Shown here piece by piece: positions 3,430 to 64,000 of a DNA stretch of 64,000 bases. How positions within the stretch are numbered: the stretch's first letter is position 1; every line of letters begins with the position of its first letter. The position numbers were made by a program, and so were the translations under genes. The DNA is from an uncultured Candidatus Saccharibacteria bacterium (GTDB lineage Bacteria > Patescibacteriota > JAQUNI01): assembly GCA_964555185.1 (NCBI GenBank), contig CAZKRD010000003.1, positions 19,943-83,942 on the forward strand, read 5' to 3'. The notes under the pieces are model-generated. The model was given only the letters and a program-made list of their open reading frames with translations, made no database searches and was not told the origin of the DNA.

Positions 3430-3433
3430 AATT

Positions 3434-4027
3434 TTAAGGTAAACTTTCACAAGCAAGGCCATCGTTATCATTACCATCTAACCTATGAATGTTCCCAGCT
3501 CCTTGTTGCACACAATAGTTATAGCAGGCCTGAGCGGCGGCGTGAGTTGTGAAATCAGAACAATTATATCTGTTATAACTACAATCACAAACTGCTGTCG
3601 TGGGCGGTGGCGTAGGCTTAGGTGTCACTTTGGGTTGTGCAGTAGGGGTGGGTTCGACAGGTGTCGGTTCTAGTTCTTGTGGTTGAGGCGGTTGTTCTTG
3701 TTTTGGCTCTTGAATCAATGGTTCAACTTTTTGGGTTTGTTCGGTTTTGGGTTGTGTCGTAGGAGCGGGTTCAACAGGTGTCGATTCTGATTCTTCAGGT
3801 TGAGATGGTTCTTCTTGCTCTGGTTCTTGATTTAATGATTCAGCTTCTTGGGTTTGTTCAGTGGCTGATTGTTCCTGTACACCTTCTTGTGGTTGTTCTG
3901 CTTCGGTTGTTCCTGTTTTCGTCTCCTCTATATTGGTTTCTTCTTCTCTAGGGATTTGAGTGGTTTCTGTACAACCAGATAAAATCAACACGCCAACTAA
4001 AATAACAAATAATGTTATTTTTTTCAT
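3434..4027 (-). CDS. lipoprotein with Pro/Glu/Thr-rich tandem repeats and C-terminal Excalibur Ca-binding motif
   Basis: Lipobox LILSGC; ~100-bp tandem DNA repeats encoding EPxPTxQPK units; C-terminal DGNDNDGLACE matches the Excalibur DxDxDGxxCE motif. Confidence 0.6.
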   Translation of the reverse strand: MKKITLFVILVGVLILSGCTETTQIPREEETNIEETKTGTTEAEQPQEGVQEQSATEQTQEAESLNQEPEQEEPSQPEESESTPVEPAPTTQPKTEQTQKVEPLIQEPKQEQPPQPQELEPTPVEPTPTAQPKVTPKPTPPPTTAVCDCSYNRYNCSDFTTHAAAQACYNYCVQQGAGNIHRLDGNDNDGLACESLP

Positions 4028-4036
4028 CTTTTTGAA

Positions 4037-4294
4037 TTATTTTGCAAGCCCATTTCGTCTTAAACAATTTTGATAAGACCTTTCGAAATCATCACTTATT
4101 AAAAACTGTTGTTTGGCGACAAACTCTTTAAAAGTGCCATCGGTCTTAAAACTTCCCCCTACGGTTTCATAGCATTTTTTCCTAATCTGGCTTGGTCGCC
4201 ATTCAAACCAATAAAACCCAAATCCTAGAATGAGAAGCACCAAAACTACTAAGACTGTTTTCCAAATAAAGATTTTTTTGATTTTTTCTCTCAT
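4037..4294 (-). CDS. small single-TM protein (paralog family WFxxRPxQIRKxCY...CLxxxGL)
   Basis: 85 aa; TM helix then conserved motif shared with 5091..5420 and 5429..5683. Confidence 0.4.
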   Translation of the reverse strand: MREKIKKIFIWKTVLVVLVLLILGFGFYWFEWRPSQIRKKCYETVGGSFKTDGTFKEFVAKQQFLISDDFERSYQNCLRRNGLAK

Positions 4295-5683: not shown

Positions 5684-6505
5684 ATGTTTAGAAAATATAC
5701 CTTGATTTAAATCACAAAACCTCCCGCCAGATTATGGTCTTGCGACCAACAGACTCTTTCGAGACTGACTTTGTAAAGCAAGTTCCTCTGACGAGAGGCT
5801 CTCTATGCTTTACAAGGCTTTTGATGCCATATCAGTTGAAAACTGACTTAGGCGATTTGATTGTAGGGTCTAACTGGTTAACTCCTCTTACATCAATTAT
5901 TACTTAGCCTTTTATAATCTTATTATACAGCAGAGGCTTATTATCTGTAAATCTTAAAATGAACATTAGCGCCTCGCTCTTGAAGCCAAGGCCTGTTCAA
6001 AATTTCCTTGCGCTCTTACTACTTGAAAGCGACTTACCAATTCGTTCACTGTCCCCCAAAAACAAGTTTTTTACGATAAAGCTGGAAACGAGAATGATTC
6101 CGATGAGTGAAATGCACAGAAGAAACAAGATTATCAGGAATATCAAGAAGATGAGGCAGTATTATTGATTCTTGCATTTTCCGAAGTCTCGGTGTAAGGT
6201 GGTATTAGAGTCGCAAAAAACACAGTTCAAAAAAGGACAATCTGGTAACCCTAAAGGTCGGCCCAAAGGAACTAAGAATTTCTCTACTATTTTTGATGCA
6301 GCTGTCAAACAGATAGCGATAAAGGATAACATCTCTGTAGCACAGATTGCTTTCGTAGTAGTAAAGAAGCTCAAGAGAAAGCAAGAGAGATCATAAAATT
6401 TTTAAGAGAAACACAAAACGAGAACGGCAACAATTAAACAAAAAAGGCGATAAAGAATCAACCTGTAAAAACAGGTAAAAAACAGGTGGGTGGTAGAAAA
6501 GCAAA

Positions 6506-18868: not shown

Positions 18869-20479
18869 ATGAAGAAAGTCGCTATTTACACAAGAGTTTC
18901 TAGCGAAGAGCAAGTAAATGGTTATAGCCTAGGAGATCAACAAGAGAAGTTGCAGGATTATTGTAAATCCAATGGTTTTCTATTAGAAAAAAGACATATA
19001 TACCGAGAGGAAGGAATTAGTGGCGCAAAAAAGGAAAGGCCTGTTTTAAGCCTGTTATTACAGGCAGCTCAAAATAAGGAGTTTGCCTTAGTTTTAGTTT
19101 ATAAATTAGATCGGTTTTCAAGGAGCCTAAAGAATCTCCTTGAGCTAGTTGCTGATTTAGAGAGAAATGGAATTGGTTTTAAGTCAATTACAGAGACATT
19201 TGATACTTCAACTCCGATGGGCAAGTATATGCTTCAGAATTTAGGGTCCATAGCTGAACTAGAGAGAGAGATGATCAGAGAAAGGACTCTAATGGGACAA
19301 ATCAAGTATCTTAAAGAGGGCAACTGGAAGGGGGGCATTACTCCCTATGGATACGATTACAATAAAGAGACTCACAAACTTGAAATTAATAAAGAAGAGG
19401 CTAAGATTGTTCGGAAAATGTATAAATGGGTTGCAGAAGAAGGTTCAACTTCACATTCAGTCCAAAAGCGACTTAATGATTTAGGGATTTCTACTAAGTA
19501 TGGTAACTTAGGTAAAAAGAAGCAGGTTAATGGTGCGTGCTTTTGGAAGAAAAGGACCGTTGGCAGGATTTTAACTAACGAGATTTATTCGGGTACATTT
19601 ACTTATCGTAAATATAAATATTTGGGGAGGGTTAGAGGAGAAGATAATTTACGTCCCGAGGACGAGTGGATTAAGATTAAAACTCCTAGAATAGTTAGTA
19701 AAAAGATTTTTGATTTGGTCCAGAATCAAATAAATAAAAATAAAAAACACTCACCGAGAAATAGTAAGTATAAATATCTTTTTGCCCACATGATTAAGTG
19801 TGGTTACTGTGAAGGTAGGTATGGGAGTATGTATAGTGCTGAACGCAAAAGAGGTGTAGTTGGACGGAAGAGATATTTTTGTCATAACACCAGAGCGGAT
19901 AATAAACAGGAGAAATGTAAAGCCAAAAGCGTGGCAGAAAAAAGAATTAGTGAGCCCATCTGGAACAAGATAGCAGAGGCGTTGAGTAATCCAGCCATAG
20001 CTTTTGAGCAATTGGAAAAGATACAGAAGAAAGAGAACAACATTGAGGAGGTTCAAGAGAAACAGAGAGAATCAGATAAGCTGATCCTTAAGAACAAAGA
20101 AAAATCCAGACGATTACTGGATTTGTATTTGGGAGGTGGGGTAGATAAGGAGACTTACGAAGAGAAAGTGGGGGAGATAAATAAAGAGGCCGATAGCTTC
20201 AGGCGGGAAAAAGTAAGGTATAATAACCTTTTTATTTCCAAAGAAGAGAAGAAGGCGAGAACACAATCAATTCAGGAGATGTATGGGCGGTTCAAGGACA
20301 ATCTTAAGAAAATCACCTATTCTCAAAAGAGAGAAGTGCTTAAAATGTTGATAGATAAGGTAATTATTAAAGGCGCAAAGATTGATATTTACTGTAATAT
20401 TCCCTATAAATACTCGTTTGAGGGACAGTCAACTCTCCTTCCGTGTCTTTGCCTTCGGGGTCGGGCAGAAATTCATTGA
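18869..20479 (+). CDS. large serine recombinase (integrase)
   Basis: N-terminal AIYTRVSSEEQ catalytic serine motif, recombinase domain, Cys-rich zinc ribbon (CGYCEG...C...C), coiled-coil C-terminus. The last ~15 codons read antisense through the LTD gene. Confidence 0.9.
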   Translation: MKKVAIYTRVSSEEQVNGYSLGDQQEKLQDYCKSNGFLLEKRHIYREEGISGAKKERPVLSLLLQAAQNKEFALVLVYKLDRFSRSLKNLLELVADLERNGIGFKSITETFDTSTPMGKYMLQNLGSIAELEREMIRERTLMGQIKYLKEGNWKGGITPYGYDYNKETHKLEINKEEAKIVRKMYKWVAEEGSTSHSVQKRLNDLGISTKYGNLGKKKQVNGACFWKKRTVGRILTNEIYSGTFTYRKYKYLGRVRGEDNLRPEDEWIKIKTPRIVSKKIFDLVQNQINKNKKHSPRNSKYKYLFAHMIKCGYCEGRYGSMYSAERKRGVVGRKRYFCHNTRADNKQEKCKAKSVAEKRISEPIWNKIAEALSNPAIAFEQLEKIQKKENNIEEVQEKQRESDKLILKNKEKSRRLLDLYLGGGVDKETYEEKVGEINKEADSFRREKVRYNNLFISKEEKKARTQSIQEMYGRFKDNLKKITYSQKREVLKMLIDKVIIKGAKIDIYCNIPYKYSFEGQSTLLPCLCLRGRAEIH

Positions 20480-23982: not shown

Positions 23983-24059
23983 TTTTGTACTTCAATTGTT
24001 TTATTTTACCATTTTCTTAGTGTATTGACAAGAAAATTCAGCTATGGTAAGATATTTAG

Positions 24060-24365
24060 TTCAAAGTGACCAAGGGTCATCCCGAGGATGAGCGAGGCGA
24101 GGATGAAGGGATCTCGCGGGTATTCCTTAAGGATCCTTGGGACCTTCGATTTATAATTAATGCTTCTTAATCTGTAGGCGGTTTTACGGGGCTATGCTTG
24201 TCAATGGATTTTTTAATGGCGAGTTACCCCTCGCTTAGCGAAGATTTTCGGATGATGATCGTAAATTGAATCTTCATTGGGCGAGGGGGCCAGACTTTCC
24301 TAATCCTTGGAGTTTAGCCTTGCTCTTAAGTAGACTTAGGAGCTTAGCGTCTACAGATTAAGAGG
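24060..24365. ncRNA. candidate structured RNA of unknown class (strand undetermined)
   Basis: ~420-bp ORF-free gap in a compact genome. Nested long-range complementarities: 24070-24078/24132-24140 (9 bp), 24168-24180/24348-24360 (13 bp incl. one G-U), 24227-24234/24281-24288 (8 bp), plus local hairpins. Confidence 0.3.
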
Positions 24366-24425: not shown

Positions 24426-24848
24426 GTGAAGAAGAAAATGTTCGCTTTTTTGTACTTTTTGCCACTCTTTGTGGTTATTCTCACCACAGTTATTAGATGG
24501 GGGAATCCGGAGAGCTTTAAGGGGGTTTTGGGGCTGCTTTCACCTCTCCTTAACCTCGTGCTTTGCTACTTGCTGCTAAGTTGGAAGATTTTCCGCAAGA
24601 TTTTCTTGCATGAGAGGTTTGTTGTGGGACAAACTTCCCATGCGAAGGCTTATAACAGGATCAAGGACAAGGAGATTCACGTTCATTTGCAAGTGGGTAG
24701 GAAAGTGGTGATTGATCAGAAGGTGTGCGTTAGAGCAACGGTCCCTTCTATAGATAAGCCGTGCATTTTGGTAGCCGTGGTTAATGAAGATGGAGAATCA
24801 ACCAGTCTTCCTTCTGCTGCAACCATTACTATCCTGGGCCCCTGCTAA
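24426..24848 (+). CDS. hypothetical membrane-anchored protein
   Basis: 140 aa, two N-terminal hydrophobic helices; followed by a terminator. Confidence 0.4.
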   Translation: MKKKMFAFLYFLPLFVVILTTVIRWGNPESFKGVLGLLSPLLNLVLCYLLLSWKIFRKIFLHERFVVGQTSHAKAYNRIKDKEIHVHLQVGRKVVIDQKVCVRATVPSIDKPCILVAVVNEDGESTSLPSAATITILGPC

Positions 24849-33450: not shown

Positions 33451-35976
33451 ATGAAGAGAAGGTTCAGAGCGGTAGTGATCGTTTTGTTGTTTTTATTGTT
33501 TCTGGGGAATCAGGTTTTGGCCCAAGCACAAGAGGAAGATCCAGAGATTCAGAGAGCGCGGCAGTATATCCGCACCGTTTTTCGGATCACCACGATTTCG
33601 GATAAGGTTTTAAACATTGCCTTAGGGGAGAAATTCAACGGAATCCCTTGGCTCAAGTGGATCGGTTTTCTGATTAGCGGGGATCAGATTTATGAAGAAT
33701 TCTCAATAGGGGATTATTATCGAGGGATTTACCTCGCAATCCAGACCGGGTTCGACAAGATTTTAGTTGAAGCCTTAGAGCTTGTTGGTTTTGGGGGGAT
33801 TGCTAAGACAGCGAGGCTTGCTTTCTCGCCAATTGAAAGGGCTTTATTGGAATTCTATGACAACGCGGTGGCTGTCGCGATTCAAAACCAGATTAGTCTC
33901 TATCTTGAGGCGCGGCGTTTAGGATATTCTCATCAGGAGATTTTAGACCAAGAGGATGGAGACGGAGAGCTGTTTTTCACAGACGATGGTTGGTTGTACA
34001 TTGCTGGTGATTTAACAATCCCTCCCTTTGGCGCTGTCAGGCCGGGACACAACAAGCGGGAAGATGTTTACGATCTTGCTCGTGATGTTTATTTAACGCT
34101 TCAAGCCCAAGTCGTTTATTCAGAAGAAAAAGAGGAGTTGGGCGAGAAATTTTTAGAAAGGGTTTTGGGAGTTAGCCAGGCAATCGGCAGTGCTGATCTT
34201 GCTTTGGTCATTGACCGTTCCGGGAGCATGACTTATCCGATGACGAATTCAGACTCCCGTTCGCGTTTGGCAGTGGCAAAAGTCGCGGCTGAAGCTTTTG
34301 CCGATCTTGTCTGGCCCGAAGATTACTGCGCGGTCGTGGATTTTGCCGGTGATGTTGATGTTCCAGGTCAAGGCTATTTCGAAAGTAGCAATGAAATTAA
34401 AGAGCTGATCAGGGGCATTGAAGTTGGCAGTTGGAATGGGACAGCAATCGGATTGGCTCTCTATGCCTGCTTTAAGGGTTTTAAGACCCTGCCCCATCCC
34501 AATAACCAGTTGATTTTGCTTTTGACCGATGGCGCGAACAACCGAGATCCTGACCCTTTTGAAGTGATTCCCGAGGACAGCTGTCCTGTTTTTACGATCG
34601 GGTTTGGCTCGGGCGAAGAATACAATGAACCGATGCTCCAGGAAATTGCTAAAGTTACAGGCGGGATGTACAAGCACGTGGATTTTGGTTCTCCGGAAGA
34701 GCTTGCTGACTTCTTTGCTTTTATCGGGGGCTTAATGCACGGAGCGAGCACTGCCTTAAAAGAAAGAGGATACATCAATCAAGAACAAACAGTAGAACAC
34801 AGGTTTAGAATCGGAGACGATGTCGGTTTAGCCCAGATCAATCTTAGTTGGGGCGGGAGTACTTTAGGAGCCCAGATTATCGGGCCGGCAGGCGCTTTAA
34901 TCTTGCCAGACAGGAGAGGCGAAGTTTATTTGGGCTTTGACTTGGCAGTCCCCTCCCTTGGTCAATACAGAATTGAAATAAAAGGGGAGAGCGTGAGCCC
35001 GGGCGGTGAACCTTATGTTTTAAGCGTGGCCACGGTCAGTTCGGTGATTGCCAATTTTCATCCTTTCAAGTCTCTTTATGCTTTAGGTGAAGCGATTGAG
35101 ATTAGGATTTCTGCCAAACAAAAAGGGGAGGATTATGTTCTCAAATCCCTTCCCTGCACAGTGGTTTTGTGGATTTGCGATCCTGATGGTCAGGTTTTAG
35201 AAAAAGAGGGGGATCTTTGTCAATATATTCCAGAAATCCCCGGTCCCTATTTGATCCGGGCCGAGATTTCGGGCGTGGATTTAGAGGGCGAGCCCTTTCA
35301 AAGAATTTTGGAAGAGCGGATCTGGGCCGGTTCACGGGAGGCTTTGACCATTAATCCAGATTCTCTGGCGCCGGCGCCAAACTCTGTGATTTATAAGCGG
35401 AAGCCCTGTATTTCTGCTCAAATTTTAGGGCCGAGCTCTAATTTGAATCCAGAAGCTTGGAGTCTGGCGATAGACGGGACAGAGGCAGAATTTGAGTTTA
35501 ACGAGGTTGATCAAATCATATCTTGGGTCCCTTCCAGCTACCTTGCTTTTGGCGAGCACAATGTCATTTTGACCATCGTGGACAGAGAGGGACAGGGCCC
35601 ACCGCCGCTTCATTGGTCTTTTCAGATTGAGTTTAACGAATTAGCGGTTTCCGAGAATATTACAGTAGAAGAAAAAGATGGTTTAGGGGAACAGGTGGAT
35701 TTTAGGGATTTATGGGCAATCAACTTTCCCAACCCCTTTTTTAACGAAACCACATTCGCTGTTTGGCTGGAAAGAAAAGCAGAGATTCAGATCGAGGTGT
35801 TTACTGCAGGCGGTCAGAAGGTGGCTTCTTTTACTTTTTCCGGACAGCCAGGGCATAACAAGATTCCTTGGCAAGCTCAAAACAGCCAAGGAGAAATTCT
35901 GGCCAGCGGCATCTATTTTTATTCTGTCAAGACGCAAGAATCTAGTTTGCAACGAAAGATGTTGATTTTGAAGTAA
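33451..35976 (+). CDS. secreted von Willebrand factor A domain protein with C-terminal sorting-domain-like beta segment
   Basis: Signal peptide; MIDAS LVIDRSGSM ... LLTDGANN; C-terminal ~80 aa resembles T9SS/Por-type C-terminal domains. Confidence 0.6.
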   Translation: MKRRFRAVVIVLLFLLFLGNQVLAQAQEEDPEIQRARQYIRTVFRITTISDKVLNIALGEKFNGIPWLKWIGFLISGDQIYEEFSIGDYYRGIYLAIQTGFDKILVEALELVGFGGIAKTARLAFSPIERALLEFYDNAVAVAIQNQISLYLEARRLGYSHQEILDQEDGDGELFFTDDGWLYIAGDLTIPPFGAVRPGHNKREDVYDLARDVYLTLQAQVVYSEEKEELGEKFLERVLGVSQAIGSADLALVIDRSGSMTYPMTNSDSRSRLAVAKVAAEAFADLVWPEDYCAVVDFAGDVDVPGQGYFESSNEIKELIRGIEVGSWNGTAIGLALYACFKGFKTLPHPNNQLILLLTDGANNRDPDPFEVIPEDSCPVFTIGFGSGEEYNEPMLQEIAKVTGGMYKHVDFGSPEELADFFAFIGGLMHGASTALKERGYINQEQTVEHRFRIGDDVGLAQINLSWGGSTLGAQIIGPAGALILPDRRGEVYLGFDLAVPSLGQYRIEIKGESVSPGGEPYVLSVATVSSVIANFHPFKSLYALGEAIEIRISAKQKGEDYVLKSLPCTVVLWICDPDGQVLEKEGDLCQYIPEIPGPYLIRAEISGVDLEGEPFQRILEERIWAGSREALTINPDSLAPAPNSVIYKRKPCISAQILGPSSNLNPEAWSLAIDGTEAEFEFNEVDQIISWVPSSYLAFGEHNVILTIVDREGQGPPPLHWSFQIEFNELAVSENITVEEKDGLGEQVDFRDLWAINFPNPFFNETTFAVWLERKAEIQIEVFTAGGQKVASFTFSGQPGHNKIPWQAQNSQGEILASGIYFYSVKTQESSLQRKMLILK

Positions 35977-36022
35977 CAGAGGATTATCCTCAATAATCCT
36001 CTTTTTTAGTTTTTCCCATTTC

Positions 36023-36092
36023 CTGTCATTGCGAGCGACCAGAGGGAGCGAAGCCGCCGATACCGGGTGGTCACCCGTAGGGTGACAATCTC
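36023..36092 (+). repeat. 70-bp direct repeat, copy 1
   Basis: ctgtcattgcgagcgaccagagggagcgaagccGccgataccgggtggtcacccgTagggtgacaatctc. Confidence 0.85.
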
Positions 36093-36165
36093 ATAAACAG
36101 CAAGGATAGACCATTTTTTATTTTTTGGAGATTACTTCAGTTCACAGCGGCATTACCATCTTCTA

Positions 36166-36194
36166 TTGACACAGGCGACATTTTATGATACAAT
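36166..36194 (+). promoter_or_regulatory. consensus sigma70-like promoter TTGACA-N17-TACAAT
   Basis: ttgaca 36166-36171, tacaat 36189-36194; ~170-nt structured leader follows (perfect 9-bp inverted repeat gtaacactc/gagtgttac). Confidence 0.5.
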
Positions 36195-36369
36195 ATGGAG
36201 TATTTGAAAAAAGAACTAGATTTGGGCTTAAATAAAGGGAATTTAGGCCTTAATTTAGCCCTTTGGACAATGTTTTTATCAGGCTTTTCATGTATTTTCG
36301 TGCTTATGAAGTAACACTCGCCTGACAGACAGGAAGGAGTGTTACAAAAGAAGGATAAGGAGTCAAAGA

Positions 36370-37206
36370 ATGAAAAAGTTCAGTTTGGTTATGGCGATGG
36401 TCCTGGTAGTTGGTGTGGTTGGTTTTCTGGCTGGCTGTGGCGGTTCGGGTATGGATATAACTGTCCCGGAAGGCGGGACAATTAGTGTTACTCGGAATTC
36501 TGTGCTTGTGCATGTGCCTGCTGGCACACAGCTAAATGTAAGCACAGGAGGACAACAGGTAGCGGCAAAGTCCAGGGTAGCGGCAAAGTCCGAGAGTGAG
36601 AGAAAGGCGACCCAGACCGAAGTCAGGCAACCCGAAACGTGGGTGGCCGAGGAAGCTGGTTATTATTATGCCAGCAGTACGAAAATGTCGAGTACTCGCG
36701 ACTTCGCTCTGACCGAAGCTCGCCGGATGGCTGTGTCGAGCTTATTCGGTAAGCTCCCGGCAAACGTTGACCGGAAGGACCTTCCGGGCGACGCGGTTGA
36801 AAAGGTAGATGAGGCCGTGTCTATGTCCGGTAGTTTTTACCGGGCAACGGTCAAGGTTCGTGTCTCTAAGGCTCTTGTAGACAAGGTCATCGCGGCGAAG
36901 AAGGGCCCTCAAGTCGAGTTAATTGAACTCGATAAGGACATCTATACCGATCAGGACCGTCGGTACTACTATGTTGATGGTTTTGAAACATCGAGCAACC
37001 AGCAGTTTGCCCTTGACGGCGCTGCTCACGACGCGAGGATCCGCCTTGCACGCTACTTCAACGATAGACTGAACATTATCATTGAAGTCAGCGAGATAGG
37101 GGGACAGGTTGTGAGTCAGGGGGCCAAGAGAAACGACAGCGGTCGTTATGAAGGGACCGTTAGAATAAAGATTCCCCGTGCTGGTCTTCGAACGACGCAA
37201 GACTGA
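36370..37206 (+). CDS. lipoprotein, higher GC than surroundings
   Basis: Lipobox FLAGCGG; 278 aa. Confidence 0.5.
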   Translation: MKKFSLVMAMVLVVGVVGFLAGCGGSGMDITVPEGGTISVTRNSVLVHVPAGTQLNVSTGGQQVAAKSRVAAKSESERKATQTEVRQPETWVAEEAGYYYASSTKMSSTRDFALTEARRMAVSSLFGKLPANVDRKDLPGDAVEKVDEAVSMSGSFYRATVKVRVSKALVDKVIAAKKGPQVELIELDKDIYTDQDRRYYYVDGFETSSNQQFALDGAAHDARIRLARYFNDRLNIIIEVSEIGGQVVSQGAKRNDSGRYEGTVRIKIPRAGLRTTQD

Positions 37207-37226
37207 CTAGACAGAAGTCTAGTCCA

Positions 37227-37262
37227 GGGACGAGAGCAATTAACTCGTCCCTATTTTTTTTA
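37227..37262 (+). terminator. rho-independent terminator
   Basis: gggacgag-N9-ctcgtccc then TATTTTTTTT. Confidence 0.65.
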
Positions 37263-37265
37263 TTT

Positions 37266-37335
37266 CTGTCATTGCGAGCGACCAGAGGGAGCGAAGCCAC
37301 CGATACCGGGTGGTCACCCGCAGGGTGACAATCTC
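37266..37335 (+). repeat. 70-bp direct repeat, copy 2
   Basis: 68/70 identical to 36023..36092. Confidence 0.85.
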
Positions 37336-37430
37336 GTGAAAGTCTTATTTGACTCTTAGGAATGGGATTGCTTTGTCGACGCTAATGCGTCTCCTCGCAA
37401 TGACGTTTTGTATTTTTAGGACAAAATAAA

Positions 37431-37460
37431 AAAGCCAAGATAAACTTGGCGAAAGATCAC
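37431..37460 (-). terminator. rho-independent terminator for 37465..38361
   Basis: minus strand GCCAAG-TTTATC-TTGGC then TTTTTTATTTTGT. Confidence 0.5.
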
Positions 37461-37464
37461 TACA

Positions 37465-38361
37465 TCACACATAAAGTTTAATGGGCAACTCGTTGATCAT
37501 CCTCCTAATGGTTTTAAGATCGGCCGTGGCATGTTCTGCCCCAGGAAGCGGCTCAAGATCAATAGGCACTTGAATCTTCAGCATCCGTAACCTCAAGAGC
37601 AGCTCTTTGAAATCAATTTCTTCCATTGAATCTATTCCTTCTGTTTGAGCTAGAGGAATAGTTTCTGCTTCGAGGCCCACTCGCCGCGCGTTCTTAAGGT
37701 GAATTGCTTTTACGATAGGCCAGTGAACCTTAAGCTCTTTGTCAAGAAAAGAAGCCAGTGACATCCTTTCTGTTTTTAAATGGTTTAAGGTGTGGATACT
37801 GTAAAGATAATTGCCAAGATCCCACAGGCAGCCGAGGCGATCATCTTTTAGTATTTCACAGAGGCGAGCTACATCCGACAGGGTCTCACATCCAGTCGCG
37901 GCCTCGTTCTCCACAGCTAACACAAAATTAGGAGGGAGTATCTCTAAGGCTCGTTTGAGGTGGTCCACCAATCCACTTTTGGCCATATACGGGATGTCGA
38001 GCTGGCGCCTGCCCGCGAAAGCGCGGATCACATTTGTGCCGAAGATTATGGCGCACTCAATGAGTTTCGGGAGTTTCTTGAAATGTTCTTCTACTTGAGT
38101 TGGATCATCAAGTTCGCATTTCAGAAAACAAGAAGCAAGGAGGCTTACTTTTTTTTCGGCATCATTGAGTATACTTGCTTCCTTTTTTACTCGTTCGAGT
38201 GGAATGTCCCATATATCCTCGCCATCAATTTTTCTGATTTCTACTTGCTTGATTTCCTGTCTTTGAGCCCAGGGCAGAAATGTTGCTGCATTCGGAGCAA
38301 CTTTGTCCATTATAATCCCAACAGAAAACTGATCAGGCATCTGCTTTCCTCCTCCTTCCAA
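37465..38361 (-). CDS. sugar phosphate isomerase/epimerase (xylose-isomerase-like TIM barrel) family protein
   Basis: IRAFAG, AVENE, WDLGN motifs. Confidence 0.55.
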   Translation of the reverse strand: MEGGGKQMPDQFSVGIIMDKVAPNAATFLPWAQRQEIKQVEIRKIDGEDIWDIPLERVKKEASILNDAEKKVSLLASCFLKCELDDPTQVEEHFKKLPKLIECAIIFGTNVIRAFAGRRQLDIPYMAKSGLVDHLKRALEILPPNFVLAVENEAATGCETLSDVARLCEILKDDRLGCLWDLGNYLYSIHTLNHLKTERMSLASFLDKELKVHWPIVKAIHLKNARRVGLEAETIPLAQTEGIDSMEEIDFKELLLRLRMLKIQVPIDLEPLPGAEHATADLKTIRRMINELPIKLYV

Positions 38362-38420: not shown

Positions 38421-39662
38421 TTAGAGAACTTCGGATCCCTTGCCCTGCTGGATCAGCGGGATATAGGTTTCCAGTTCTTCCAGCACACTGGCGTCGGTCA
38501 GGTCGAGTGCCTTTCCCTTCTCGTGGGACATATATCCAGCCATGATCAACCTGACGATCTCACGTCCATACCTGAAATTAAGCAGAGCGTCTTTGCCTTG
38601 CTCAAAGGCGGCAATGGCGTCTCTCCATTCAGCCGCGTATCCATACAGATCAGGCTCATTGGGTTGCATGGTAAGAGCACCGCGCGTCGCCTGTGCCTTT
38701 TCTAGGGCGAGTTCGCCGTCTACAATGGATTCAGCCGCGATGTCGCTGATAAATATGCCAGCAGGCGATTCCAGGGAGTTGATCGTGTATGAATACCCGG
38801 GGCCAAAAGCTTCCATCAGAAGTCTCAACCCGGGAGCGTCATACATCCATGAATTCGTAGCTTGAGCTACGCTTCGGACACCAGTGTCAGGGTCTTTGAA
38901 TTCGGCTGTAACCAGCGCGTAGTCTTCTGCTGGAGTTGTGGCATAATCCACGCCACGGTTGCGAAGTTGGCTGACCCACGGCTCTTTGCCCCACTTGAGC
39001 AGTGTCATGGTACCATTGATGGAAACGGGTTCCAGATGATCAGGTGGCTTGCCAGTAGGGGTTAACATATACATGCCAACGGCAATACTGTGACAGCCCA
39101 TATCGCACCAGACACCACCACCCTGTTTTTTTGGGTCCCAGAACCACGCTTCGTGCGGCCCGCCGTGTTCTTCTGCTGATCGGGTTAGGTGCACAGCGCC
39201 TATAGATTGCTCCACTGACTGAAGCTGGAGTCGGGCGTTTTGAACTGCGGGCATGTGGATCTGATTCTCAAAATACGCTGTGGAGACACCCACTGATTTG
39301 ACCAATTCAGCCAGACCCACCATCCTATTAGCTTCAGCCATGTTTCGAGCCAGCGGTTTTTCACAGATGATCCCCTTGATTTTTGCACCTCTCTCCTCGA
39401 TTGCGCGGATAATTTTACGCAGGACTTCAAGGCGAACAAAGTTAGGGATAAACATACAGACTACATCCACCTTTTGGCAGAGCTCCTCCACGCTTCTATA
39501 AACCTTAGTATCACCCAACCCGGCTTCGCGTGCTCTTTGAGCGAGTTCTTCTGCCCCATCCAGGGCATAAACACCAGCTAATTCCACGCCGCGAACCGAT
39601 TCCAAAGCCTTCCGGTGGAACTCCGCAACAAAACCAGCTCCGATCATTCCAATCTGTAACAT
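38421..39662 (-). CDS. Gfo/Idh/MocA family NAD(P)-dependent oxidoreductase
   Basis: N-terminal Rossmann motif MLQIGMIGAGFVAEFH, EKP motif (ICEKPLA), ~410 aa. Confidence 0.8.
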   Translation of the reverse strand: MLQIGMIGAGFVAEFHRKALESVRGVELAGVYALDGAEELAQRAREAGLGDTKVYRSVEELCQKVDVVCMFIPNFVRLEVLRKIIRAIEERGAKIKGIICEKPLARNMAEANRMVGLAELVKSVGVSTAYFENQIHMPAVQNARLQLQSVEQSIGAVHLTRSAEEHGGPHEAWFWDPKKQGGGVWCDMGCHSIAVGMYMLTPTGKPPDHLEPVSINGTMTLLKWGKEPWVSQLRNRGVDYATTPAEDYALVTAEFKDPDTGVRSVAQATNSWMYDAPGLRLLMEAFGPGYSYTINSLESPAGIFISDIAAESIVDGELALEKAQATRGALTMQPNEPDLYGYAAEWRDAIAAFEQGKDALLNFRYGREIVRLIMAGYMSHEKGKALDLTDASVLEELETYIPLIQQGKGSEVL

Positions 39663-39871: not shown

Positions 39872-39943
39872 CAGCCCCAAGGGGAATCGAACCCCTGTTT
39901 TTAGGATGAAAACCTAATGTCCTAACCACTAGACGATGGGGCC
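39872..39943 (-). tRNA. tRNA-Glu (anticodon UUC)
   Basis: Cloverleaf folded by hand: acceptor GGCCCCA/UGGGGCU, D arm GUCU-AGUGGUUAG-GGAC, anticodon stem UUAGG/CCUAA with loop UUUUCAU, T arm AGGGG-UUCGAUU-CCCCU; CCA not encoded. Confidence 0.85.
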
Positions 39944-56713: not shown

Positions 56714-59700
56714 TTGAAATTTATGGGAATCTCTAAACCGGTCAAAAAAAAGTCTTCCCAAGGATCTAATCGGGTGAATAGATTCTCCCCTCGCAGATAT
56801 TTTTCTAAAAAACAGGAAGTGATCAAGCAGCCTAATTTGATTGAGATTCAAATTCATTCTTACGATTGGTTTATCAAAGAGGGTTTGAGGGAGTTGTTTG
56901 ATGAGATTTCACCGATTTGCGATTATTCCAGCAAAGAGCTGGAATTATATTTCAAAAAGTATTATTTGGATGAACCTAAATACGATGAATTTACCGCCAA
57001 GGTGAGGAACACTACTTTTGAGGCCCCATTGCGCTGTCAGGTTGAATTGAGAAATAAAAAAACTAAAGAAATTAAAGAGCAAGAAATTTACCTCGGGGAT
57101 TTTCCGTTAATGACACCACGAGGTACTTTTGTTATTAACGGAGTGGAAAGAGTAGTGGTTTCTCAATTGATCCGTTCGCCGGGCGTGTTCTTTACGGCTG
57201 AAAATAATCAGGGCCGTAAATTGTTTGGTGCTAAGGTAATTCCCAACCGAGGGGCTTGGCTTGAGTTTGAAACCGACAAACAGGGAGTGATTAATGTTAA
57301 AATTGATCGCAAGCGAAAAGTTCCAGTTACCGCGCTTTTACGCGCTTTTGGTTATGCGGATAACAAACAGCTTAGAGATTTATTTGACGATGTTGATGCC
57401 AACCCTGATCTCTCTTACATCAAGGTGACGATCAAAAAAGACCACTCCAGCAACCAAGACGAGGGCTTGAAAGAAGTCTATAAAAGGATTAGGCCAGGGG
57501 ATTTGGCCACGGCTGATAATGCCCGCTCTTTGATTTACGCTATGTTTTTTAATTTTGATCGTTATGATTTTGGCAAAGTAGGTCGCTTTAAAATGAATAA
57601 AAGATTAGGGCTCAAAGTTCCGATGAACAAAAAGGGCCGTGTTTTACAACAAGAGGATTTGGTGGCTATCGTGCGCGAGATCATTCGACTGAACAATATC
57701 CAAGGCGAGCCGGATGATATTGACCACTTGGGCAATAGAAGAGTGCGGGCAGTAGGCGAACTGATTCAAAATAGATTCAGGGTGGGTTTGGCGCGCATGG
57801 AAAGGATCGTCCATGACCGGATGAGTACTCTGGATTTAACAGCGATCGCTCCCTCTCAATTGATCAATGCTCGACCAGTGATTGCAGCTGTCCGGGAATT
57901 TTTTATGTCTTCACAGCTCTCCCAATTTATGGACCAGACCAATCCTTTAGCTGAACTTGCTCATAAAAGGAGGTTGTCGGCAATGGGACCAGGCGGCCTG
58001 CATCGCAAGCGCGCAGGATTTGATGTCCGTGACGTCCATCGTTCACACTATGGTCGGATCTGCCCGATTGCTACTCCTGAAGGTCCTAACATCGGCCTGG
58101 TCGGACACCTTGCTAATTTCGCCTGTTTGAATGAATATGGCTTTATTGAGACTCCTTACCGCAAGGTGATCCACAAGGTTCCGAATCAGCCGGCGAAAAC
58201 ACGGGGTGAGATTGCGCGCGGCAATTACAAAAACAGAAGAGGAAAAATAATCGTAGGTGATAACGAGGAGATTAGCCCCATAGCGGCCTCTAAACTTGCC
58301 AAGGAAAAATTGAAAGAGATTACAGTGAAGCCCAGGGTGAGCAAGGAGATTGTTTACCTTGATGCTTTTGAAGAGGAGAGAATAATTACAGTACCCGCCA
58401 CAGTAAAATTAGACGAAAAAGGTCATTTTTTGGAAGAACATATTCGCTGCCGCGTCCACGGGGAACCCACGATTCGTTCTTCGGAAAAGGCGGACTATGT
58501 GGATGTGTCCCCGCGTCAGATCATCAGCCTGGCCACGTCCTTGATTCCTTTTTTGGAACATGATGACGCGAGTAGGGCTCTGATGGGCAGTAATATGCAG
58601 CGTCAAGCCGTGTCTTGTATTGTACCCGAAGCACCTTTGGTCGGTACAGGAGCGGAGAAGGCGGCCGCTTTGTATTCGGGCCAGGCAGTAGTCGCGGAGA
58701 AGGCGGGCAAGGTGATTAAAGTATCTTCAAATCAGATTCAACTCTTGGCTTTAGATGGCGAGATTTTAAAATATAATCTTCTCAAATTTGCGCGTTCCAA
58801 TGCTTCTACCTGTATGAATCAGCGCCCTCTTGTTGCAAAGGGTCAGCGAGTGAAAAAGGGCGACATTATTGCCGATGGTGCTTCCACCCACGAGGGAGAG
58901 TTGGCGCTGGGACAGAATTTACTAGTAGCTTTTATGGCCTGGGAAGGTGGTAATTTTGAGGACGCGATTTTGATTTCAGACCGGGTAGTCCAAACCGATC
59001 GTTACTCTTCTATTCATGTTGAGGATTTCTCTATGGATATGCGCGACACAAAGCTGGGGCCAGAAATGGTGACTCGGGATATCCCCAATGTAGGGGAAGA
59101 GCGCCTTAAAGATCTTGATGAAGAAGGAATTGTTCGGATTGGCGCCGACGTATCTTCGGGTGATATTTTAGTGGGCAAAGTAACCCTTAAAGGAGAAAGC
59201 GATTTAACCGCAGAGGAGAAGCTGCTCCGTGCTATTTTTGGAGAGGAAGCCCGCGATGTAAAGGACACCTCTCTTTATCTGCAGCACGGTGAGCACGGCA
59301 AGGTGGTTGATGTGAAGATATTTTCTCGCGAACAAGGCGACAAGTTGCCCACTGGCGTGATTAAGACGATCCAAGTGAGCGTGGCTAATTTGCGAAAGAT
59401 TCAGGTTGGCGACAAGATGGCCGGCCGGCACGGTAATAAAGGGGTCATTTCCCGAATTGTTCCCCAGGAAGATATGCCGTTTTTGAAAGATGGGACACCG
59501 ATGGACATTGTCCTTTCCCCCTTAGGCGTGGTTTCCAGAATGAATATTGGTCAAATCTTGGAGACCCACTTGGGTTGGGCAGCCAAAAGGCTAGGATACA
59601 AAGCGGCTAGTCCCGCTCTCAATGGGGTTAGTGAGGAAACTATCCGCGGCGAGCTTAAAGATGCGGGCCTGCCAGAAGACGGCAAGGTTGTTCTTTACGA

Positions 59701-60112
59701 TGGTCGCAGAGGTTTGCCTTTTAATGAGAAGGTTACAGTTGGTATTATTTATATGATGAAGTTGAATCATTTGGTGGAGGATAAAATGCACCAACGTTCA
59801 ATCGGCCCTTATTCTCTGGTTACCCAGCAACCCTTGGGAGGCAAGGCCCAGTTTGGAGGTCAGCGTTTTGGCGAGATGGAAGTTTGGGCTCTGGAGGCTT
59901 ATGGTGCGGCTCATACCTTGCAGGAAATGTTGACAATAAAATCTGATGACGTTTTAGGCCGTTCAAAAACTTACGAGTCTATTATTAAAGGAGAGGAAAT
60001 CTTGAAGCCCCATGTGCCAGAATCATTTAATGTCTTAGTTAAAGAATTGAAGGGGCTTTGTTTGGACGTGGAGTTAGTAGGGCAAGAACAGAAGCTAAAT
60101 CGTAAGAGTTAA
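56714..60112 (+). CDS. rpoB: DNA-directed RNA polymerase subunit beta
   Basis: conserved beta-subunit blocks throughout ([24 protein letters not shown]-like, [14 protein letters not shown]); 1132 aa. Confidence 0.97.
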
Positions 60113-60181
60113 AAATTATATCTACCCGCCTCATTTAAGATTTGGTTTTAGCTTTTAGGTTTTAGCTTTTAACTTTTTTCA

Positions 60182-60736
60182 ATGTATCTTCCCACGACTC
60201 ATGCCGCCCTTGGTGTTTTAGGAGCTGTTCTTGCAAGAGCAGGTTCAGAGTATGTTTTGGATTATAAGATTGTGATTTGGGGGATGGTTTTTGGAGTACT
60301 GCCGGATCTTGATTACATCTATTACCTCATCCGTTGCGGGATCAGGCCGGTCGAATACAGCCATGAACACAGACAGGCGGTCACCCATAGTTTTTTTCCT
60401 CATCTGGCAGTAAGTACGATTTTATTCTTTGTCTGGGGGAGACCCGAAGCCCTGGTGTATTTGTTCGCTGTCTTAAGCCATCTAGTTTTAGACAGTGTAC
60501 ATCCGCCATGGGGGATTCGTTGGCTTTGGCCTGCCTCTGGAAATTTCTACAGCATAGGTTTTCGTTCTGGTTTTACAGCAATAGGCAAAAAAGAACTGGA
60601 TAGATTTGTTAAGACAAGGGCGGATCGGGGCTGGGTCAGACGTTTTGTTAGATTAAATAATCCTTATTTCATCTTTGAGGCTTTAATTTTTTTAAGTTTC
60701 GTGAGTTTTCTTATTTACTTCTGTTTTTATTTATGA
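60182..60736 (+). CDS. DUF457-like membrane-bound metal-dependent hydrolase (YdjM-like)
   Basis: H...LPDLDY...HR..THSFF...H pattern in a polytopic membrane protein. Confidence 0.45.
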   Translation: MYLPTTHAALGVLGAVLARAGSEYVLDYKIVIWGMVFGVLPDLDYIYYLIRCGIRPVEYSHEHRQAVTHSFFPHLAVSTILFFVWGRPEALVYLFAVLSHLVLDSVHPPWGIRWLWPASGNFYSIGFRSGFTAIGKKELDRFVKTRADRGWVRRFVRLNNPYFIFEALIFLSFVSFLIYFCFYL

Positions 60737-63700
60737 ATTCATTTAAAGCAATCAAATTAAAACTTGCTTCTCCGGAAGAAATTTTGTCTTGGTCGCATGG
60801 TGAAGTGACCCGCCCGGAAACAATCAACTACCGCACGGGTAAACCCGAGAAAGACGGCCTTTTTTGCGAGAAAATATTCGGGCCGACAAAGGATTGGGAG
60901 TGTTATTGCGGTAAATATAAGCGGATACGTTACAAGGGAATTATTTGTGATAAGTGTGGCGTGGAGGTTACCCGTTCCATTGTCCGTCGCGAGAGGATGG
61001 GAAATATTTCTTTGGCCACGCCTGTTTCTCATATTTGGTTTTTGAGGGGGGTTCCTTCCAAGATTGGACTTCTTTTGAACCTGGGCGTTCAGAGTTTGGA
61101 AAAAGTGATCTACTTTGCTAACTACATTATCACTAAGGTTAATAAGGGGGCAAAGGAGGAGGTGAAACAGAGAATCGAGAAGGAATTCCAGGATAAGCAA
61201 CGGGCGATTAACAAAACACACAAAGAGACAGTTAACTTAATTAAACAGAGGAAAGGCAAGGCCTTATCCAAAATAAAGAGTACAACTAAACGTAAAGGAA
61301 TTCTAGACAAGTTTGATCGTAAAGTGATTAAAGCGCATCAACAAAAAGAGAAAGATCAGGAAAGACTTTCTCGCGCTCATGTTTTGGCCCAGAAGGAGCT
61401 TGCGGAGATCAAGCGGCTGGCTGTGATTTCCGAACTATTGTATCGAAATTTTTCCCTAAAATATGGAGAGGTCTTTGAGGCGAGCATCGGCGCAGGGGCA
61501 ATTCGTCAGATTTTGGCCAAGATAGACCTAGGGAGGTTGAGCAAAAAATTAAGCCAAGAACTGCAGAATGCTTCTTCCACAGAAAAGAAACGGCTGAAGA
61601 AAAGAGTTTCTTTGGTTCAGGGCCTTCTGGTTGCTAAGATTCGTCCCGAATGGATGGTGTTAACAGAGCTTCCCATAATTCCCCCAGATCTTCGGCCAAT
61701 GGTTCAATTAGACGGCGGTCGTTTTGCCGCGTCTGATCTTAATGATCTTTATCGTCGGATCATCAATCGCAATAATCGATTAAGAAGACTACAGGAATTG
61801 AACGCTCCAGAAGTCATTCAACGTAACGAAAAAAGGATGCTTCAGGAAGCGGTGGACTCTCTGATTGATAATGAGGCGCGGCGCGGCCGGGCAGCTTCCA
61901 CAACGACTGGCCAGAGGCGAACCTTAAGGTCAGTGGCTGATATGCTTAAAGGCAAGCAGGGTCGATTTCGTCAGAATCTTTTGGGCAAAAGGGTGGACTA
62001 CTCTGGGCGGAGTGTAATCGTGGTCGGTCCAAAATTAAAACTGCATCAATGCGGCATTCCAAAGAAAATGGCCTTGGAGCTTTTTAAACCTTTTGTGATT
62101 TCGAGATTAATTCAAGAGGAATATGCCCATAATGTACGTTCCGCAGGCAAGCTCTTAGAAGCCGCCACCGCCGAAGTTTGGGATATCTTAGAGGACGTGA
62201 TTAAAGATCAGTATGTGCTTTTAAACAGGGCCCCGACCCTCCACCGTTTGAGCATCCAGGCTTTCAGGCCGGTTCTGATCGAGGGGAAGGCGATTCAGAT
62301 TCATCCTATGGTTTGCGCCGCCTTTAACGCGGATTTTGATGGTGATCAGATGGCGGTTCATGTCCCCTTAACAGATATGGCCCGGAGAGAAGCAGAGAAA
62401 ATAATGCTTTCCTCGCGGAATCTTTTGAAGCCAGCCACAGGCGAGCCAATTACTACAGCCTCAAAGGCGATCGTTTTAGGCTGTTACTATATGACCCGTT
62501 TGCGCAAAAAAGATCAGACTAAGATTAGGATTTTTTCGGATTCTAATGAAGCACTTTTGGCGTATGAGCTTCATGACATAGATATCCAGGGGCTGATCGA
62601 GGTCAGGGTTGGTTCGAGCAAGAGAATTAAGACTTGTGTGGGAAGGATTATTTTTAATCAGATTCTCCCCCACTCGTTACGTTTCCAGAATAAGGTGATG
62701 GATAAGAAGGAGCTCAAAGATTTAATTCATCTTTGTTTAAAAAAGCATGGTCGCAAGCGGGCCGTTAAATTGATTGATGACATTAAAGATATTGGATTTG
62801 AATACCTGACTCGCTCTGGACTTTCTTGGGGGATGGCTGATCTGGTAACCCCTTCCCAAAAAGAGGAGTTATTGGCGCAGGCGGATACTCAAGTAAGTCA
62901 GATCTACAGACAGTTTAAGGAAGGGCTTTTGACTGATGAAGAACGTTATGCAAAGGTTTTAGAGATTTGGACCAAGACTAAGGATTTGATTACCAAGTTT
63001 GCAACCAAAACCATAGATCAACACGGACCGCTTTATTCTATGCTCATCTCGGGAGCGAGAGGGAGCTGGAGCCAAGCGTCTCAACTTGTTGGGATGAAGG
63101 GTCTGGTCGCCAACCCAGCTGGCAAAACAATTGAGTTGCCAGTCAGGGATAGTTTTAAAGAAGGGTTTTCTGTTTTAGAGTACTTTATTTCCACGCATGG
63201 AACGAGGAAAGGAATGTCCGACACGGCCCTTCGGACCGCCACCGCCGGTTATTTGACCAGGAGGCTGGTGGACGTCTGCCAGGAAGTAGTAATCAAAGAA
63301 AAGGACTGCAAAGACAAGACAGGGATTCTGATTACGCGCGAGGAAACCGAGGAGATGGGGGAAACGATTGCTGGTCGAGTAACGGGACGCACTTCTTTAA
63401 CCTCCCTTTCTGATCTCAAAACAGGTGGGATTGTGGTCAAGAAGGGAGATTTGATCAATGAAGAGCAGGCCCTCAAAATAGCTAAGATAGACCCAGACGA
63501 ATTCCGAATCCGTTCCTCTCTGACCTGTAAAACTCCTAAGGGGATTTGTCAGAGATGTTATGGTTGGGATTTAGGACATAATAGATTGGTTCGATTAGGC
63601 GAGGCAGTAGGCATCATCGCCGCTCAATCTATCGGTGAGCCTGGCACTCAACTCACGATGCGTACTTTCCACACAGGAGGAGTAGCAGAGGGAGATATTA

Positions 63701-64000
63701 TTCAGGGTCTGCCTCGGGTAGAGGAGCTTTTTGAGTGCCGAGCTGTAAAAAAGCCGGCGATCATGGCAGAGGTCGGCGGCATTGTTGACGTTGAAGAAAC
63801 AGGGGACAAGAAAATTTTGAGAATATTCCCTCAAGATGTTATTGTCGATCGTTATCAGATCAAAGGCAAAAAAGTACAAATTGAAACCGGGGATCATGTC
63901 GAGGCCAAAGAGGTTTTAGCGGTATCTAACCAGTCACCCCACAAAGGACGTAAGATTAAAGCCAAGGCGGCAGGGTCGGTCCGGATCGAGGGGGAGGTGT
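60733..64000 (+). CDS. rpoC: DNA-directed RNA polymerase subunit beta' (3' end beyond window)
   Basis: MNSFKAIKLKLASPEEILSWSHGEVTRPETINYRTGKPEKDGLFCEKIFGP..., Zn finger CYCGKY...CDKCG, NADFDGDQM catalytic motif; ATG overlaps the previous stop. Confidence 0.95.
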   Translation, partial: MNSFKAIKLKLASPEEILSWSHGEVTRPETINYRTGKPEKDGLFCEKIFGPTKDWECYCGKYKRIRYKGIICDKCGVEVTRSIVRRERMGNISLATPVSHIWFLRGVPSKIGLLLNLGVQSLEKVIYFANYIITKVNKGAKEEVKQRIEKEFQDKQRAINKTHKETVNLIKQRKGKALSKIKSTTKRKGILDKFDRKVIKAHQQKEKDQERLSRAHVLAQKELAEIKRLAVISELLYRNFSLKYGEVFEASIGAGAIRQILAKIDLGRLSKKLSQELQNASSTEKKRLKKRVSLVQGLLVAKIRPEWMVLTELPIIPPDLRPMVQLDGGRFAASDLNDLYRRIINRNNRLRRLQELNAPEVIQRNEKRMLQEAVDSLIDNEARRGRAASTTTGQRRTLRSVADMLKGKQGRFRQNLLGKRVDYSGRSVIVVGPKLKLHQCGIPKKMALELFKPFVISRLIQEEYAHNVRSAGKLLEAATAEVWDILEDVIKDQYVLLNRAPTLHRLSIQAFRPVLIEGKAIQIHPMVCAAFNADFDGDQMAVHVPLTDMARREAEKIMLSSRNLLKPATGEPITTASKAIVLGCYYMTRLRKKDQTKIRIFSDSNEALLAYELHDIDIQGLIEVRVGSSKRIKTCVGRIIFNQILPHSLRFQNKVMDKKELKDLIHLCLKKHGRKRAVKLIDDIKDIGFEYLTRSGLSWGMADLVTPSQKEELLAQADTQVSQIYRQFKEGLLTDEERYAKVLEIWTKTKDLITKFATKTIDQHGPLYSMLISGARGSWSQASQLVGMKGLVANPAGKTIELPVRDSFKEGFSVLEYFISTHGTRKGMSDTALRTATAGYLTRRLVDVCQEVVIKEKDCKDKTGILITREETEEMGETIAGRVTGRTSLTSLSDLKTGGIVVKKGDLINEEQALKIAKIDPDEFRIRSSLTCKTPKGICQRCYGWDLGHNRLVRLGEAVGIIAAQSIGEPGTQLTMRTFHTGGVAEGDIIQGLPRVEELFECRAVKKPAIMAEVGGIVDVEETGDKKILRIFPQDVIVDRYQIKGKKVQIETGDHVEAKEVLAVSNQSPHKGRKIKAKAAGSVRIEGEV

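Follow-up and report, generated by a model that had tools for sequence, protein, structure and literature searches.

Hairpin-forming composite repeats around a lipoprotein gene of Candidatus Saccharibacteria and the widespread family of palindromic units that supplies their ends

The bracketed gene and its repeats

The DNA analysed here, referred to as the window, is a stretch of 64,000 nt from an uncultured Candidatus Saccharibacteria bacterium (contig CAZKRD010000003.1), in which two direct repeats bracket a single gene, that of a lipoprotein. It is part of a scaffold of 706,972 bp (metagenome assembly ERZ23486238, BAEC19-1_SAMN10404973), of which about 80 kb (~11%) was covered by extension from the window's genes, the Pfam lists spanning the same ~80 kb. 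Within the window the repeats (36020-36097 and 37263-37340) are 78 nt each with 94% identity, and their 70-nt core (36023-36092 and 37266-37335) has 68 of 70 positions the same, the two mismatches being at 36056/37299 (G/A) and 36078/37321 (T/C). An exact search of the window with a 31-nt piece of the repeat gave two occurrences, whereas shuffles give none. Both the repeat search and the list of open reading frames (ORFs) thus bear out what an earlier note on this DNA had claimed, namely that direct repeats of 68/70 identity enclose one gene. The features of the locus, and one related unit elsewhere in the window, are these:

35978 to 36015, + strand: intrinsic terminator (10-bp stem and T-run) of the upstream gene 33451-35976, which encodes a VWA protein with a type IX secretion system (T9SS) sorting domain; from the terminator scan.
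36020 to 36097, + strand: repeat copy 1, composite and solo, without inverted partner; from sequence, repeat search and covariance model.
36166 to 36194, + strand: sigma-70-type promoter TTGACA-N17-TACAAT with extended -10 TG, matching at 11 of 12 positions; from the promoter scan.
36200 to 36369, + strand: predicted leader of ~170 nt with the ribosome-binding site (RBS) AAGGAG at its end; from sequence and fold.
36370 to 37206, + strand: lipoprotein gene, 278 aa, with signal peptide and lipobox LAGC; from ORF translation, homologues and structural model.
37226 to 37261, + strand: intrinsic terminator of the lipoprotein gene, with a GC-rich stem of 8-9 bp, a 9-nt loop and T8; from sequence and fold.
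37263 to 37340, + strand: repeat copy 2, composite like copy 1, left arm of a convergent doublet; from sequence and covariance model.
37364 to 37406, - strand: inverted basic unit GTCATTGCGAG-GAGACGCATTAGCGTCGAC-AAAGCAATCCC, right arm of the doublet; covariance model, E = 2.4e-5.
37434 to 37450, - strand: intrinsic terminator of the convergent TIM-barrel (AP_endonuc_2) gene 37465-38361(-); from the terminator scan.
24074 to 24115, + strand: basic unit with outer stem ATCCC/GGGAT in a divergent intergenic region; covariance model, E = 0.004.

Each repeat copy is a composite of about 70 nt with three hairpins. In copy 1, the 5′ end GTC-ATTGC-GAG (36025-36035), which is the end typical of the family discussed below, is followed by the first hairpin, GCGACCAGAGGGAGC (36035-36049), then by a segment that we call module B, GCCGCC-GATACC-GGGTGG-TCACCC-GTA-GGGTGAC (36053-36086), and then by the 3′ end AATCTC. 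Over both copies module B reads GCCRCC-GATACC-GGGTGG-TCACCC-GYA-GGGTGAC and makes two hairpins, the second of which (36070-36086 in copy 1) is the GTCACCC-GTA-GGGTGAC hairpin described in the earlier note, present in each repeat in the slightly wider form GTCACCC-GYA-GGGTGAC. Copy 2 and the inverted unit to its right form a convergent doublet (37266-37406, with a gap of 28-31 nt), of the sort known from bacterial interspersed mosaic elements (BIMEs) and from REPINs, and this doublet folds as a single long hairpin (z = -6.7). The inverted 11-mer CTCGCAATGAC, which had been placed at 37408-37418, 70 bp beyond copy 2, and described as a fragment of the repeat start, does exist but lies at 37394-37404, 58 nt past copy 2, and is simply the end of the doublet's inverted partner. 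A degenerate inverted partner of copy 1 was suspected around 36141-36174 and rejected, as similarity stops at the repeat and the covariance model is silent there. It may be added that the Logan unitig L002 ends at both repeats, because the two copies share a run of 33 nt and the assembly graph has k = 31; these forced breaks are therefore uninformative on copy number or excision.

The position of the repeats relative to the signals of transcription is clear. Copy 1 has the upstream gene's terminator on one side and the lipoprotein promoter on the other, and the doublet lies between two facing terminators, those of the lipoprotein gene and of the TIM-barrel gene, so that both repeat copies are probably in untranscribed DNA. 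Since they stand outside promoter and terminators, the transcription unit that they enclose looks like a cassette, which is how the earlier note read it, as a gene between attC-like or duplicated attachment sites or as a repeat-mediated insertion. The likeness to an integron cassette is real in one respect: attC sites, 57-141 nt long, also bound single genes with structured imperfect palindromes of similar length, and here a single gene stands between direct repeats that contain hairpins, in a window that also encodes a large serine recombinase (18869-20479). Yet that the 70-mers are attC-like or other att sites of a site-specific cassette is highly improbable, since the repeats show no GTTRRRY/RYYYAAC core of the R′/R″ type (the 78-nt sequence contains no GTT and no AAC at all), no tyrosine integrase such as IntI is encoded within ~80 kb, the gene has a strong promoter of its own where cassette ORFs are generally promoterless, and there is no cassette array, the exact repeat being present in two copies in the ~80 kb. 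No integrase or transposase adjoins the locus, nor is there a Phage_integrase or Y1 transposase in the Pfam lists. The serine recombinase, the sole recombinase in this region, is 16 kb away, and we know of no serine recombinase att sites that leave identical direct repeats of 70 nt. What survives of the cassette reading is its layout, a self-contained unit between repeats, together with the possibility of repeat-mediated insertion or deletion.

The single long ORF between the copies (36370-37206, 278 aa) starts with MKKFSLVMAMVLVVGVVGFLAGCGG, which has the signal peptide and the lipobox L-[AS]-[GA]-C of bacterial lipoproteins, the latter kept in the homologues P0003 and P0004. The protein belongs to no Pfam or NCBIfam family, and a word-indexed search of 5.8 billion proteins returned itself alone; four relatives, 33-37% identical, came from an exhaustive HMMER search, and none of them is flanked by the repeats. 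Its N-terminal ~95 residues are predicted to be disordered, and residues 98-270 are modelled with confidence by AlphaFold as two beta-alpha-beta-beta repeats; in Foldseek, their similarity to FTT1539c (4qvr) and HP1454 (4kzs), which are secreted or hypothetical proteins, and to dodecin-like folds is weak. The gene is, then, a real though rare envelope lipoprotein gene and an ordinary self-contained unit. Two further observations concern it. At 36558-36591 a 16-nt sequence, GGTAGCGGCAAAGTCC, is repeated exactly with a period of 18 nt and encodes VAAKSR/VAAKSE within the part predicted as disordered. In addition, two of the homologues (L018 77-844 and L020 5651-6028) are encoded immediately downstream of genes for extracytoplasmic function (ECF) sigma-70 factors, an arrangement that hints at membership of this lipoprotein family in an envelope-stress or ECF regulon.

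The transcription signals predicted for the gene from its sequence alone have held up well. The promoter is where it was said to be, and so is the perfect 9-bp inverted repeat of the leader, GTAACACTC/GAGTGTTAC (36311-36319 / 36338-36346), just before the RBS; a further hairpin occupies the leader's 5′ part (~36216-36258). The leader folds more stably than its shuffles (z = -3.4), with the RBS region paired in the minimum-energy fold. It has no match in Rfam 15 at E up to 10 in a search of 35900-37500 (two chance-level matches fall elsewhere in that region), and in the homologues the gene directly follows an upstream gene, without a comparable leader. A regulatory role is possible but unsupported. 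The gene's own terminator, GGGACGAG-N9-CTCGTCCC followed by T8, is present as claimed; it was read from the sequence, the terminator scan having missed it on account of the 9-nt loop. Within the leader there is also an ORF of 39 codons (36195-36314 (+), MEYLKKELDLGLNKGNLGLNLALWTMFLSGFSCIFVLMK) with a hydrophobic C-terminal half, which is probably not expressed from the lipoprotein promoter because its ATG abuts the -10 box and it has no RBS.

A family of palindromic units shared across phyla

The conserved parts of the 70-mer are not peculiar to this locus. Its first 33 nt and last few bases follow the pattern YGTC-ATTGC-GAG-(variable hairpin)-CGAA-GCAAT-CYC of a widespread family, whose general unit consists of YGTC, an outer stem of 5 nt, GAG, a variable hairpin, (C)GAA, the complement of the outer stem and CYC. 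Folded, the unit consists of an outer stem of 5 bp that covaries, an internal loop GA/GA(A) and an inner hairpin that varies, in many cases the mini-hairpin GCGNAGC. The 29-mer CATTGCGAGCGACCAGAGGGAGCGAAGCC from the 5′ part of the 70-mer is found exactly in one metagenome-assembled genome (MAG) of Patescibacteria and in two of Anaerolineae, and 23 nt of it, GAGCGACCAGAGGGAGCGAAGCC, in four metagenome contigs of the Joint Genome Institute (JGI). All these relatives continue into a GC-rich second hairpin, different in each, and then into (G)CAATCTC or GAATCTC. With ends conserved and the second hairpin differing, the ends of the 70-mer belong to the general unit, and the window copies and their MAG and JGI relatives are an extended form of it that carries a second hairpin. 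Both 70-mers are therefore most likely copies of a composite, hairpin-forming intergenic repeat of the kind of repetitive extragenic palindromes (REPs), BIMEs and REPINs.

A covariance model (R2) built from 51 basic units has four matches in the window, with the 5′ parts of the two 70-mers scoring E = 0.09 and 0.4, and all repeat copies of the window are intergenic. The order seen at the right side of the locus, extended unit first and inverted basic unit second, recurs in four other loci (L003, L014, L015 and L016). As a side observation, the basic unit at 24074-24115 lies ~20 nt downstream of a promoter-like TTGACA-N17-TAAGAT with TG (24025-24053), and would sit at the 5′ end of a long leader of the gene that starts at 24426.

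The outer stem of the unit covaries. Exact-pattern scans found the form ATTGC..GCAAT in at least 120 viral contigs and the form ATTCT..AGAAT in at least 120, whereas the mismatched combination gave 26 matches, 23 of them with spans of 42-54 nt and three of unit length; loci fetched for one type of stem also hold ATCCT, ATTCC and ATCCC units with matching 3′ halves. The inner hairpin, which the search patterns left unconstrained, behaves in the same manner, with 84% of the cells of its stem paired against 56% in shuffles, and a covariation score of 0.463 against 0.139 in shuffled alignments (none of 500 shuffles as high) and no more than 0.063 in slid controls. Its commonest sequence is CGNAGC, extended to GCGNAGC, with N variable. 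GCGNAGC and GCGNNAGC are known as extraordinarily stable DNA mini-hairpins, described at single-strand replication origins and in the promoters of phage N4 (PMC13037366). The same GNA triloop recurs in the CCC-GYA-GGG hairpin of the window copies, but the family consists of dispersed repeats, and the mini-hairpins are not described as such.

The units are also placed as intergenic palindromes would be. As judged from crude ORF calls, 58% of the 477 units lie outside ORFs, compared to 17% of the sequence, and neighbouring units are convergent in 63 cases, divergent in 10 and in tandem in 12, with a modal gap of 21-23 nt. Singletons between co-directional genes are sense in 33 and antisense in 37 cases, and among internal mismatches G-T pairs number six and A-C pairs ten, without the excess of wobble pairs expected of RNA. 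The lack of strand bias and of G-T excess argues against a strand-specific RNA and for a palindrome at the DNA level, which is where the units would appear to act.

The family ranges over Patescibacteria, Chloroflexota, Alphaproteobacteria, Cyanobacteria, prophages of Helicobacter (H. canis) and viral contigs. Cultured carriers include Novosphingobium, with units in at least 40 places of one replicon of 1.76 Mb, Methylobacterium, Methylosinus and Aulosira. In phage contigs the units recur between capsid, portal and terminase genes, and no transposase or other enzyme is recurrent next to them. No Rfam family covers the units, either in the window at gathering threshold or in the locus and the L003 and L050 units at E up to 10, and neither the unit strings nor their translated peptides lead to a description by sequence string in open-access literature text. 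The open frames of the 70-mer, joined into one peptide query so as to reach other copies through spurious ORFs, gave no matches either. The idea that the repeat of the lipoprotein locus is tied to its cargo thus largely falls, since its conserved parts are those of a widespread intergenic palindromic family without cargo association.

REPs are repetitive extragenic palindromes, and a REPIN consists of two inverted REPs and the spacer between them (PMC3116915, PMC3337134). The units are like these elements in many ways: they are short imperfect palindromes, of 25-40 nt in the REPs, mostly extragenic, with a conserved 5′ head beside the stem and with sub-families of which several can occur together in a genome; they lie near gene 3′ ends and terminators; and they strongly prefer the inverted doublet with a short spacer. 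They differ in their head, GTCA instead of GTAG, in the composite form of the window copies with their three hairpins, and in that one sequence is common to several phyla and to phages; REPIN-RAYT systems, by contrast, are described as specific to their lineage and as passed on vertically (bioRxiv 10.1101/2022.05.22.493013). As to copy number, for which tens to hundreds per genome are usual in REPs, the ~80 kb covered of this genome hold two composite copies, two basic units and two module-B copies, and the Novosphingobium replicon has its units in at least 40 places. A tblastn search of plasmids with the E. coli RayT (a REP-associated tyrosine transposase, RAYT) gave no match on unit-carrying replicons. 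The one RAYT of Chloroflexota that was examined is flanked by GTAG-headed REPs and has no covariance-model match to the units. This RAYT-like gene, on plasmid CP069395.1, has GTAG REP doublets on both sides (L288 2890-2960 and 3555-3625; GTAGGGTGCGC...GCGCACCCTAC), a textbook REPIN-RAYT arrangement on the plasmid of an uncultured-lineage isolate.

Miniature inverted-repeat transposable elements (MITEs) such as Correia, ERIC and RUP are likewise small, non-autonomous intergenic repeats with terminal inverted repeats, and a doublet of ~75-140 nt could be seen as one that uses the unit as its terminal inverted repeat. Unlike MITEs, the doublets show no evident target-site duplication; their flanks are of the form Y...R (Y at -1 and its complement opposite) and so part of the palindrome. 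We know of no parent insertion sequence, nor of any described MITE family that is spread anywhere near as widely.

A bolder interpretation, which we regard as unlikely, is that the GTCA-headed units are an undescribed class of cross-phylum structured DNA repeats of bacteria and their phages, spread or bound by machinery other than RAYTs and tending to pair round single genes, which they would make recombinationally mobile. The 70-mer would then be a variant with three hairpins, and Patescibacteria and Chloroflexota would have its first 29 nt in identical form. If this were true, that identity would imply horizontal spread or very strong constraint.

How the bracket may have arisen

An indication of how two copies came to flank one gene is given by module B, which also occurs alone, twice, in the same scaffold ~40 kb from the locus. 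These copies (4052-4088(+) and 2345-2381(-) of L276) lie ~5-6.5 kb left of the start of the window, and the pattern common to all copies is GCCRCC-N6-GGGTGG-TCAYCC-N3-4-GGGTRA. They too bracket one gene, for a PKD/7TM-transglutaminase protein (2393-3964), in inverted orientation, so that the four module-B copies in ~80 kb form a direct and an inverted pair, each of which brackets a gene. Each copy is closest in sequence to its own pair partner, and the chance of two single-gene brackets would be ~0.002 if spacers were picked randomly, a figure estimated post hoc. Partners closest to each other, in two brackets, point to local copying. Module B is specific to this genome; it was not found in viral contigs, the five viral matches that were obtained being chance matches inside coding sequence. 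The PKD/7TM-transglutaminase gene adjoins ATP-grasp and MATCAP genes.

The explanation that we hold to be probable is therefore local copying, by which composite REP/REPIN-like repeats reached the spacers on either side of an ordinary gene. On this account the repeat would have been copied into a neighbouring spacer, much as small non-autonomous elements hop or convert locally, and the bracket would not result from site-specific insertion of the lipoprotein gene. The units agree with REPs in being imperfect, mainly extragenic palindromes and in forming inverted doublets with a short spacer. Several observations nonetheless weigh against such an account. The exact 70-mer has no more than two copies in the part of the scaffold covered, and the thermodynamic fold of a single 70-mer is no better than that of its shuffles. 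The statistics on intergenic location and strand depend on crude ORF calls, and the family has no known link to a transposase, RAYT or other factor acting in trans. The remaining points concern the gene itself: its two distant relatives directly 3′ of ECF sigma-70 genes stand in a different context, its GC content of 0.527 is the highest among 48 ORFs (mean 0.423, z = 2.0), and the interior between the repeats is mildly atypical in k-mer composition, in the top 7-8% of windows of the same size. Top GC and atypical k-mers are what recent acquisition would show.

Acquisition by recombination is one alternative. Circular or linear DNA with the lipoprotein unit and one repeat would have integrated at a resident repeat through homologous recombination of the Campbell type, duplicating the 70-mer, with the repeats acting as portable homology as in the ‘mobile regulatory cassettes’ of phages. 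These are the PeSLs of T4-type phages, said to have been described by Arbiol et al. in 2010, in which repeated promoter/stem-loop sequences reportedly bracket single genes and allow their shuffling by recombination, with excised mini-circles; such repeats are reportedly phage-specific and carry the promoter itself, whereas those of the window lie outside promoter and terminator. Copies in direct orientation and 97% identical suit an acquisition. So does the fact that copy 1 is solo and copy 2 has a canonical inverted partner, as if the insertion had taken place left of a resident doublet, and so do the composition of the interior and the rarity of a gene family that is located elsewhere in other genomes. 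Nevertheless, we consider this origin unlikely. The second repeat pair of the scaffold is inverted, an outcome that the Campbell-type mechanism cannot yield. The earlier note's ‘markedly higher GC’ is right in rank and overstated in degree: a housekeeping-type neighbour (38421-39662) is nearly level at 0.523, and in GC at third codon positions (GC3) the lipoprotein gene ranks fifth of the 48 ORFs (z = 1.2) and is no outlier. Its promoter, moreover, has the same type of consensus as the native one at 24025-24053, and the gene's unitig was found in seven sequencing runs against six and four for other parts of the window, with no sign of presence/absence polymorphism.

Might the repeats instead be kept on either side of the gene by a function in cis, as insulators or back-up terminators, as stabilisers of mRNA 3′ ends, or as operators for a dimeric regulator of the palindrome GGGTGGTCACCC? 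Intrinsic terminators do lie directly 5′ of both copies, the module-B copies of L276 are 18-90 nt upstream of gene starts, and the substitutions between copies either leave a pair in place (G-U to A-U) or are located in a loop. Functions of this sort are hard to reconcile, however, with a family without orientation bias to transcription and without G-U excess, with units in contexts as different as the spacers between phage structural genes, and with copy 2, which is downstream of both convergent genes, past their terminators, and upstream of nothing. We judge them improbable.

Whichever way the pair of repeats arose, local copying being the origin that we favour, homologous recombination between direct repeats of 70 nt could delete, circularise or duplicate the enclosed unit of 1,243 bp.

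Chromosomal surroundings and wider meaning

The genes around the locus are of an ordinary chromosomal kind. Genes of the neighbourhood encode a transaldolase family protein, VanW, HSP20, PrsW, the VWA protein with the T9SS sorting domain, the TIM-barrel protein, a GFO/IDH/MocA oxidoreductase, TsaD, TsaE, BacA, PolA, UvrB, RuvA, RpoB and RpoC. For the TIM-barrel protein, as for the lipoprotein, the search of 5.8 billion proteins returned the query alone, the lineage being without close relatives in the databases. A YdjM-family gene (60182-60736) is found between rpoB and rpoC, which are normally adjacent, and overlaps the rpoC start by 4 nt (56714-64000; L278 6542-14397). After the GFO/IDH/MocA gene an AT-rich spacer holds a tRNA gene (39872-39943 (-); Rfam, 66.9 bits). 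At the other end of the window, the region ~1-20500 may be an integrated mobile element or a defence island, with N6_Mtase/Eco57I, Methylase_S and NucS genes and many small genes without families near the serine recombinase, whose domains are Resolvase, Recombinase and Zn_ribbon_recom; genes for a HicB-like antitoxin and an AlbA_2 protein are found just outside the window, on its left (L276 7337-9573). In the same region, at 5734-5854 (-), the Rfam LOOT RNA family (RF03000) has a match of 56.6 bits, above its gathering score of 46.4, within a ~1.1-kb gap without ORFs of at least 100 aa.

For the locus itself the result is mostly deflationary: an ordinary lipoprotein gene between REP-like repeats, and no new recombination system. 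The wider interest is in the repeat family, whose units share their sequence and covarying stems across five or more bacterial phyla and many phage contigs. Repeats of this sort break short-read assemblies and seed spurious small ORFs, and a model of them would help annotation. Since REP-type repeats are normally lineage-specific, units shared by several phyla lead one to ask what recognises or spreads the family.

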